Of a DNA stretch of 31,944 bases, positions 31,485 through 31,944 are shown piece by piece. The stretch is from a virus (taxonomy: Duplodnaviria; Heunggongvirae; Uroviricota; Caudoviricetes), in the IMG/VR virus record IMGVR_UViG_646311924_000023; one strand, 5' to 3'. Made by a program: the position numbers and the translations under genes. Position 1 is the first letter of the stretch, and every line of letters starts with the position of its first letter. The notes below the pieces were generated by a model. That model ran no database searches. It was not told the DNA's origin and saw nothing but the letters and a program-made list of their open reading frames with translations.

Positions 31485-31527
31485 CCTAAGTATCAGAATA
31501 GCTAATATAATCCTGAAGGTAAAGAAA

Positions 31528-31944
31528 ATGGAAACCCTATTCAAAGTTTTTGAAAAATTTAGTTCCAGACCACTTTTTTTTATTTTTTTCGGACTCTCAC
31601 TTTGTGAATTTTTTCAGAAACAATCTGTTCTGATGAATCCATCAGCAGATAACATCGCGAAATTATTCGCAGCCATGATATTAGTTGTTTTTTTTACTTG
31701 GGGATTTGAATGGCTAATCTTCAAGTTCAATGTAAACCTTGAACCTCATGATCAAGGCGATATTGGACCAACAATTGGAACGGCTACTTTAGCTGTATAC
31801 TTAGTTTATGCCTTTCACTTTCTCAGTGAAAATCCTGAAGCATTAAATTTAAAGTTATTAACTAACTCTGGCTTTATATACAGCACAACTCTATTATTAT
31901 TCTCATTAGAATGCATGAAGCTTAGAAGACTTAAACAAAAATAA
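31528..31944 (+). CDS. Hypothetical small multi-pass membrane protein (AT-rich island cargo)
   Basis: 138-aa ORF from ATG 31528 (METLFKVFEKFSSRPLFFIFFGLSLCEFF...) with about four hydrophobic segments; TATAAT at 31506-31511 and AAGG Shine-Dalgarno; visibly lower GC than the rest of the window; stop codon is the last 3 nt of the window. Confidence 0.5.
   Translation: METLFKVFEKFSSRPLFFIFFGLSLCEFFQKQSVLMNPSADNIAKLFAAMILVVFFTWGFEWLIFKFNVNLEPHDQGDIGPTIGTATLAVYLVYAFHFLSENPEALNLKLLTNSGFIYSTTLLLFSLECMKLRRLKQK

Follow-up and report, generated by a model that had tools for sequence, protein, structure and literature searches.

A conserved gene for a predicted four-helix membrane protein, heading exchangeable defense cargo in integrase-borne islands

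The membrane protein gene and its family

The virus record IMGVR_UViG_646311924_000023, whose full stretch of 31,944 nucleotides is called the window here, begins with smpB and ssrA, continues with a Stx1a prophage, and ends with the 3' remnant of a P4-type tyrosine integrase and an adjoining open reading frame (ORF) for a small membrane protein. This last ORF is the subject of the present analysis. An initial annotation, made from the sequence alone, had described it as an AT-rich gene for a 138-aa protein with about four hydrophobic segments and no recognizable family, cut by the window edge. The 138-aa ORF is in fact complete from ATG to TAA. Because the stop codon is the final codon of the window, only the surrounding island is cut, and it continues downstream. 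The sharp change in composition after the integrase was correctly noted; GC content drops at the integrase stop codon, from 0.45 in the integrase remnant to 0.32 in the ORF (0.27 at third codon positions, GC3), against 0.53 for the whole window. The GC3 of the membrane gene is 0.23 to 0.28 in every enterobacterial locus compared. Most cargo genes of the islands lie at 0.25 to 0.29 and the integrases at 0.41 to 0.45, and by composition the membrane gene always groups with the AT-rich cargo and never with the integrases.

The Kyte-Doolittle profile of the protein has four hydrophobic peaks, at about residues 15 to 30, 44 to 67, 81 to 100, and 114 to 129. An amphipathic helix at the N terminus comes before the first peak, and the basic tail MKLRRLKQK comes after the last. 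AlphaFold2, supplied with a 56-sequence alignment, returned a confident model (predicted local distance difference test [pLDDT] score, 88.4; predicted template modeling [pTM] score, 0.81) in which four long helices match the four peaks, in agreement with the segments first noticed. The model obtained with a shallower alignment of 21 close sequences reached a pLDDT of only 54 and was set aside. With this basic tail, the positive-inside rule would place the N and C termini on the cytoplasmic side.

A word-indexed search identified 52 homologues with 60 to 99% identity, nearly all of them "hypothetical proteins" of 132 to 140 aa, from Escherichia, Salmonella, Citrobacter, Klebsiella, Enterobacter, Serratia, Pectobacterium, Yersinia, Hafnia, Phytobacter, Photorhabdus, and Pantoea. 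An exhaustive profile search against 1.8 billion representatives gave 33 cluster representatives and added about 25 distant relatives of 127 to 148 aa with 21 to 43% identity, for example in Cupriavidus taiwanensis. As delimited by these searches, the family is small and mainly enterobacterial (order Enterobacterales); other Proteobacteria contribute distant relatives, about 135 aa long. Length and helix pattern are kept down to 21% identity, and P38, N68, D75, G80, G84, and E128 are near-invariant. Pairwise dN/dS (ratio of nonsynonymous to synonymous substitution rates) is 0.07 to 0.21 in pairs with unsaturated dS, and synonymous sites are saturated between genera. Judged by these patterns of substitution, our results clearly establish a real gene for a conserved protein under purifying selection. 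The initial annotation had asked whether coding signal and conservation might be lacking in homologous loci; both are present, the former in the dN/dS values and the latter in the broad set of homologues.

The protein does not match any characterized family in the hidden Markov model searches that were made. Pfam, NCBIfam, and PADLOC gave nothing over threshold for the window protein (in PADLOC-DB 2.0, 0 families at E ≤ 0.01), and Pfam gave nothing over threshold for 28 family members. A search of the PDB by sequence profile found no match, nor was there a meaningful fold match for the 138-aa protein. The earlier statement that no family could be recognized therefore holds for characterized families, but the protein had already been filed, as the function-less entry PHROG 6556 and as a deposited hypothetical protein. 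The PHROG 6556 profile is matched with an E value of 1e-70 (residues 36 to 138 against profile positions 1 to 103 of 103) and by all 28 of the 28 aligned family members. A literature search on the accession numbers and the PHROG identifier found no paper. Two annotations that might be attached to the family were rejected. The Na+/H+ exchanger family (PF00999) scored 13.7 bits against a gathering cut-off of 26.2 (E = 0.028), and in only 4 of the 28 members. The name CPBP intramembrane protease is carried in UniRef by a single Pectobacterium homologue (P0022), and no such family was found at E ≤ 1 in the 28 members.

The gene had also been credited with its own -10-like TATAAT and a Shine-Dalgarno sequence. 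Both strings are present, and the Shine-Dalgarno sequence is partly conserved among genera in the alignment (GAAGG in Escherichia and Klebsiella loci, GGAGA in Serratia and Photorhabdus loci), but their geometry is doubtful for an independent promoter. A consensus scan upstream of the ORF found no acceptable -35 for TATAAT. An RNA starting about 7 nucleotides past TATAAT would have its 5' end within the Shine-Dalgarno sequence, and therefore the two elements cannot both act canonically. In intact loci, the membrane gene starts 38 nucleotides past the integrase stop codon, a spacing that makes read-through from the integrase at least as likely as a promoter of its own and suggests that the two genes are co-transcribed. 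In Photorhabdus heterorhabditis (locus L011, positions 10001 to 10003), ATA stands in place of the ATG start codon of an ORF that otherwise shares 96% identity with its Serratia counterpart; either recent inactivation or a sequencing error could account for the change. Downstream of the gene, just past the point at which the window ends, the related locus L002 (positions 12561 to 12591) contains a hairpin with a 12-bp stem and U/A runs on both sides, located between the membrane gene and a convergent gene. An identical hairpin sequence lies 3' of the membrane gene in locus L031. This hairpin looks like a bidirectional terminator. Self-complementary elements are also present 3' of the membrane gene in Pectobacterium and Citrobacter loci.

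Neighborhoods of the gene across genera

About 20 non-redundant contexts of the membrane gene were examined. When the window is extended by means of related genomes, the hairpin is followed by two convergent genes, encoding a 582-aa Response_reg_2 (PF19192) protein, designated RR2 here, and a 572-aa HEF_HK (PF19191)/HATPase_c protein. After these come core genes, an alpha-amylase pseudogene and then glaH-gab. Loci without an intervening prophage have the order ssrA, integrase, membrane gene, and then the genes for RR2 and the HEF_HK kinase on the opposite strand. Bellieny-Rabelo et al. (2021, PMC8011034) described the RR2/HEF_HK pair as a two-component-like element linked to restriction-modification (R-M) systems and paraMORC ATPases. 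Neither RR2 nor the kinase has a significant model in PADLOC 2.0; a weak match of RR2 to a TM model (E = 0.003) is likely spurious.

On the upstream side, a P4-type integrase gene on the same strand ends 38 to 45 nucleotides before the membrane gene in Escherichia (two island types), Klebsiella, Raoultella, Kluyvera, Serratia, Photorhabdus, and Pantoea. Pectobacterium and Lonsdalea retain integrase relics there, the integrase position is taken in Salmonella and Serratia nevei by an unrelated 263-aa tyrosine recombinase, and Tn7-like TniQ/TnsD genes lie upstream in one metagenomic contig. No recombinase was found beside the membrane gene in the K. oxytoca and Yersinia loci. The identities of adjacent integrases and membrane proteins fall in step (99.5/98.6, 97.5/96.4, about 91/79, and 45/52%).

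The cargo downstream of the gene differs from locus to locus. It consists of RR2 and HEF_HK in the E. coli island and of PDC-S06 and Kiwa in the second E. coli island type. Klebsiella, Raoultella, and Kluyvera harbor DUF6119 and two radical-SAM proteins, and Salmonella, Citrobacter, and Serratia harbor RR2 together with a 994-aa GHKL ATPase and Dcm. McrBC and Dcm are found in Pectobacterium, AbiE in Pantoea, Abi_C in Photorhabdus, Hachiman HamB in Yersinia (with an MkoC-like helicase on the other side), and a BamHI-like R-M system in a further context. A relic of 34 codons from the 3' end of the RR2 gene lies beside the membrane gene in Klebsiella, Raoultella, and Kluyvera (loci L003 to L005, positions 10488 to 10589) and also in some E. 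coli genomes (H109), and it marks a breakpoint of cargo replacement just 3' of the membrane gene. As far as gene order can tell, the comparison of these contexts demonstrates that the membrane gene heads the AT-rich variable defense compartment of small integrase-borne islands and that the convergent cargo is interchangeable. With so many unrelated cargos on its 3' side, the gene is tied to no single system. The initial annotation had regarded it as accessory cargo next to the P4-type integrase of a tmRNA island and had held that no system could be called from one visible gene; the conserved arrangement beside P4-type integrases and the shifting cargo bear out both views.

The window, its prophage, and the distribution of the gene

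The features of the window are collected in Table 1. The identity of stx1AB to the genes of strain 2015C-3101 identifies the window as a Stx1a prophage at ssrA, ahead of an older remnant island. The description of the locus as a tmRNA island with a P4-type integrase directly upstream of the gene needs some modification in this light. The window does contain ssrA, and the integrase is P4-type and adjoins the gene, but the Stx1a prophage now separates the two and the integrase is itself truncated at its 5' end by IS1203. The remnant has the Pfam domains Phage_int_M and Phage_integrase and is 92% identical to residues 53 to 404 of an intact 409-aa P4-type integrase; the intact integrase of related loci also has an Arm-DNA-bind_3 domain. 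The two insertion sequence (IS) copies are 99.5% identical, lie in inverted orientation, and each contain an ALIL frameshift pseudoknot. The segment of about 13 kb between them (Q, stx1AB, lysis, terminase, portal, and capsid genes) is inverted relative to strain 2015C-3101, which points to an IS-mediated inversion, and the rearranged prophage is probably cryptic. Direct repeats derived from ssrA and bounding the island were looked for, and none were found.

Table 1. Features of the window (coordinates count from its first nucleotide)
Feature	Position	Strand	Remarks
smpB	1-483		Start of the window
ssrA	698-1060		
IS1203/IS629 (IS3 family) copy	14849-16172	+	
stx1AB	18594-19820	+	stx1A and stx1B 100% identical to the Stx1a genes of strain 2015C-3101
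STnc100 small RNA	19899-20108	+	Rfam match, 176.7 bits; just 3' of stx1B, in the phage late region
IS1203/IS629 (IS3 family) copy	29181-30503	-	Has truncated the integrase; forms its junction with the Stx1a prophage
P4-type tyrosine integrase remnant (3' part), from the old ssrA island	30504-31484	+	5'-truncated by IS1203
Three tandem copies of the 7-bp unit TCAAAGA	31448-31468	+	3' end of the integrase gene
-10-like TATAAT	31506-31511	+	No acceptable -35; too near the Shine-Dalgarno sequence for a normal leader
Shine-Dalgarno-like GAAGG	31515-31519	+	8 nucleotides before the ATG; read from the sequence
Coding sequence, 138-aa predicted four-helix inner-membrane protein, PHROG 6556	31528-31944	+	ATG at 31528, TAA at 31942-31944 (final codon of the window); identical to WP_000448925.1

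The copy number of the unit TCAAAGA, at the 3' end of the integrase gene, is variable (compared with locus L001, positions 12040 to 12060, and locus L002, positions 12045 to 12055). A single copy is usual in E. coli and in other genera and gives an integrase that ends in QRSNALVA. The three copies in the window alter the tail so that it ends in KDQMLW. With two copies, as in a few O111-type strains, the integrase frame runs into the membrane protein ORF. These fused ORFs are listed at NCBI as a 424-aa "tyrosine-type recombinase/integrase," and the Prokaryotic Genome Annotation Pipeline (PGAP) then skips the small gene. The closest complete genome, E. coli O111:NM FWSEC0005, has the same junction as the window. 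The same arrangement was deposited as a "remnant integrative element" beside the Stx1 prophage CP-1639, where the gene is annotated as a "hypothetical protein" (CAC83129.1).

The gene is present in 585 of 5,426 complete E. coli genomes, in 560 of them at ≥99% DNA identity, and all of these copies are chromosomal; a plasmid search found no copy. Carriers include E. coli W (NC_017664.1) and Shiga-toxin strains of serogroups O111, O26, and O103, whereas the gene is absent from K-12. The RR2/HEF_HK pair has the same count as the membrane gene. The 560 near-identical copies effectively represent one clonal island and thus a single observation. Two GenBank "phage" records and 49 IMG/VR loci (L042 to L090) are prophage delimitations with the island at their edge, and many E. 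coli provirus predictions stop about 3.5 to 3.8 kb past the membrane gene, that is, beyond RR2 and the kinase. Prophage-boundary callers routinely take in the unrelated ssrA remnant island, and provirus predictions that absorbed it are probably the route by which the family entered the PHROGs.

Possible functions and comparison with known systems

The gene is an uncharacterized, fairly ordinary accessory membrane gene on a mobile element and not a new system. Our preferred reading of its role, which we hold tentatively and with low confidence, is that it encodes a stand-alone exclusion or protection factor acting at the inner membrane. The reading is based on the persistence of selection and position through cargo swaps, residence in defense islands, cargo-like composition, and single-gene architecture. 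The protein would work alone at the inner membrane and not as a subunit of the adjoining RR2/HEF_HK pair. It might hinder the entry of phage or other foreign DNA or, alternatively, act as a membrane effector, and its gene would probably be transcribed together with or just after the integrase.

Several observations weigh against this reading. Guilt by association is confounded here, since anything beside an island integrase sits near defense genes. The contexts sample few independent lineages, and the roughly 560 E. coli genomes count once. Carriage in "phage" and IMG/VR records is a boundary artifact and hence no evidence that true phages use the gene for superinfection exclusion. The ATA start codon in the P. 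heterorhabditis locus means that the gene can decay. A wider proposal, to which we give only about a one-in-five standing, is that the integrase and the four-helix protein form the conserved "head" of minimal islands, a swappable platform for defense cassettes, with the protein itself either a single-gene membrane exclusion or defense determinant or needed for the hitch-hiking of the island. Such a head would explain the survival of the membrane gene through every cargo exchange.

Among the other explanations, two appear unlikely to a similar degree. The protein could belong to an RR2/HEF_HK conflict system as its third and membrane-bound component, serving as anchor, sensor, or effector; the ancestral unit would then have comprised the membrane gene, RR2, and a kinase. 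RR2 is indeed adjacent and convergent in E. coli, Erwinia, Serratia, Citrobacter amalonaticus, and Salmonella, even in the absence of the P4 integrase and with a different kinase, and its 3' relic persists beside the membrane gene in Klebsiella, Raoultella, and Kluyvera. In E. coli, the membrane gene and RR2/HEF_HK are each at least 99% conserved in 560 genomes, and their compositions resemble each other. However, neither consistent co-occurrence nor a shared operon or strand was found. The membrane gene is on the opposite strand, outside the RR2/HEF_HK operon and separated from it by the terminator-like hairpin, and at least 12 distinct contexts lack RR2, among them those with BamHI R-M, McrBC, AbiE, Kiwa, Hachiman, and Abi_C and the Cupriavidus and Tn7-like loci. 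Moreover, the membrane family is tiny and mostly enterobacterial, whereas RR2/HEF_HK is reported from 644 regions in 628 strains of many taxa, with no such partner named in the text of that report (PMC8011034).

No more probable is a backbone gene that works with the integrase, either in control or stabilization of integration and excision or in transfer and competition of the element, e.g., by entry exclusion of related elements. Conjugative elements encode small inner-membrane proteins as their entry-exclusion factors. The constant strand and the spacing of 38 to 45 nucleotides in seven genera, the co-divergence with the integrase down to 45%/52% identity, and the fusion of the two ORFs by the two-copy TCAAAGA variant argue for such a role, as does a distant homologue that follows a plasmid fertility-inhibition (PFIN) gene. 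The difference in GC3 between membrane gene and integrases argues against it, and so do the loci that lack the P4 integrase, retain it only in degraded form, or have the 263-aa recombinase in its place (Salmonella, Serratia nevei, K. oxytoca, Yersinia, Pectobacterium, and the present window), where the membrane gene is nevertheless intact and under selection. In addition, we know of no precedent for a protein with four transmembrane (TM) helices in tyrosine-recombinase chemistry.

The protein might also be an orphan immunity protein that guards the inner membrane from a competitor's pore-forming or ionophoric toxin, such as a colicin or an effector of contact-dependent inhibition (CDI) or of a type VI secretion system (T6SS), although we consider this improbable. 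Membrane-targeting toxins usually have small multipass inner-membrane immunity partners. The Cupriavidus homologue is accompanied in its locus by a type I secretion system, a secreted protein of giant size, HlyC, and a ShlB fragment, and CdiI and Ntox domains are among those reported from RR2 neighborhoods (PMC8011034). Yet the enterobacterial loci examined have no toxin gene next to the membrane gene, none of the 28 members matches a Pfam immunity family at E ≤ 1, and the neighbors are anti-phage rather than interbacterial systems. Finally, a spurious or decaying ORF in an AT-rich spacer, with no protein function, can be given almost no credence. PGAP leaves the ORF unannotated in some genomes, one Photorhabdus locus has a mutated start codon, and a convincing promoter of its own is missing. 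This reading is effectively refuted by the pattern of conservation, namely, the low dN/dS (0.07 to 0.2) with synonymous saturation between genera and a length and helix pattern conserved to 21% identity; the confident, co-evolution-driven AlphaFold2 model also speaks against it.

If the stand-alone exclusion reading is correct, the gene would be a compact single-gene addition to the catalogue of defenses and a marker for integrase-only islands that exchange cargo between genera. The exact protein is found in about one-tenth of complete E. coli genomes and has no assigned function. If the gene is only a passenger, annotation would still gain, as the gene is fixed as real and complete and the neighboring RR2/HEF_HK pair is shown not to need it. 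A further gain is the warning that the unrelated island is often absorbed by provirus predictions at ssrA.

The protein shares features with several known systems. GtrA (YfdG) is likewise a four-TM protein of about 120 to 140 aa whose gene lies directly 3' of and co-oriented with an integrase gene; CPS-53 has this bactoprenol-glucose translocase gene immediately behind intS, and serotype-converting phages have the same arrangement. In contrast to those loci, a gtrB/gtrC-type glycosyltransferase gene does not follow the membrane gene in any locus examined, and convergent defense genes are found instead. GtrA (PF04138) was also rejected on sequence, with an hhalign probability of 0.9% against K-12 YfdG and no GtrA match at E ≤ 1 in the 28 members. 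The exclusion protein RexB of lambda (144 aa, four TM helices) is similar in size, in its approximately four TM helices, and in its residence on a mobile element among defense functions, and the membrane gene is AT-rich like a moron gene. However, no RexA-like partner is present among the Pfam-annotated neighbors in any locus, and the element is an integrase-only island, not a phage. For RexB, hhalign of the family profile gave a probability of 0.4%, and there was no Pfam RexB match.

The RR2/HEF_HK system is the immediate downstream neighbor in the E. coli island and in several genera, and both it and the membrane gene are AT-rich and linked to R-M/paraMORC contexts. They differ in strand and in the many unrelated cargos of the membrane gene, and the text on the system (PMC8011034) does not mention such a gene as part of it. 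PHROG 6556, WP_000448925.1, and CAC83129.1 represent the same protein family and carry no function. The PHROG profile covers only residues 36 to 138 of the window protein. The copy in phage phi467 and CAC83129.1 (AJ304858, the remnant integrative element beside Stx1 phage CP-1639) are 100% identical to the window protein, and both "phage" records, AJ304858 and phi467, include the gene only as chromosomal flank.

A further counterpart is the integrase-only island at ssrA. "Integrase-only" defense islands and the tmRNA hotspot were documented in E. coli in 2023 (PMC10121019), and the islands described here are likewise small, with an integrase, no other mobility genes, and defense cargo. The difference is that the study describes no conserved membrane gene heading the cargo. 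Thus, the ORF was already known as a hypothetical protein and a function-less PHROG, and the category of island was documented (PMC10121019). What our analysis adds is a conserved and selected family with a constant place at the head of exchangeable defense cargo across genera, distinct from the look-alike families with which it might be confused.
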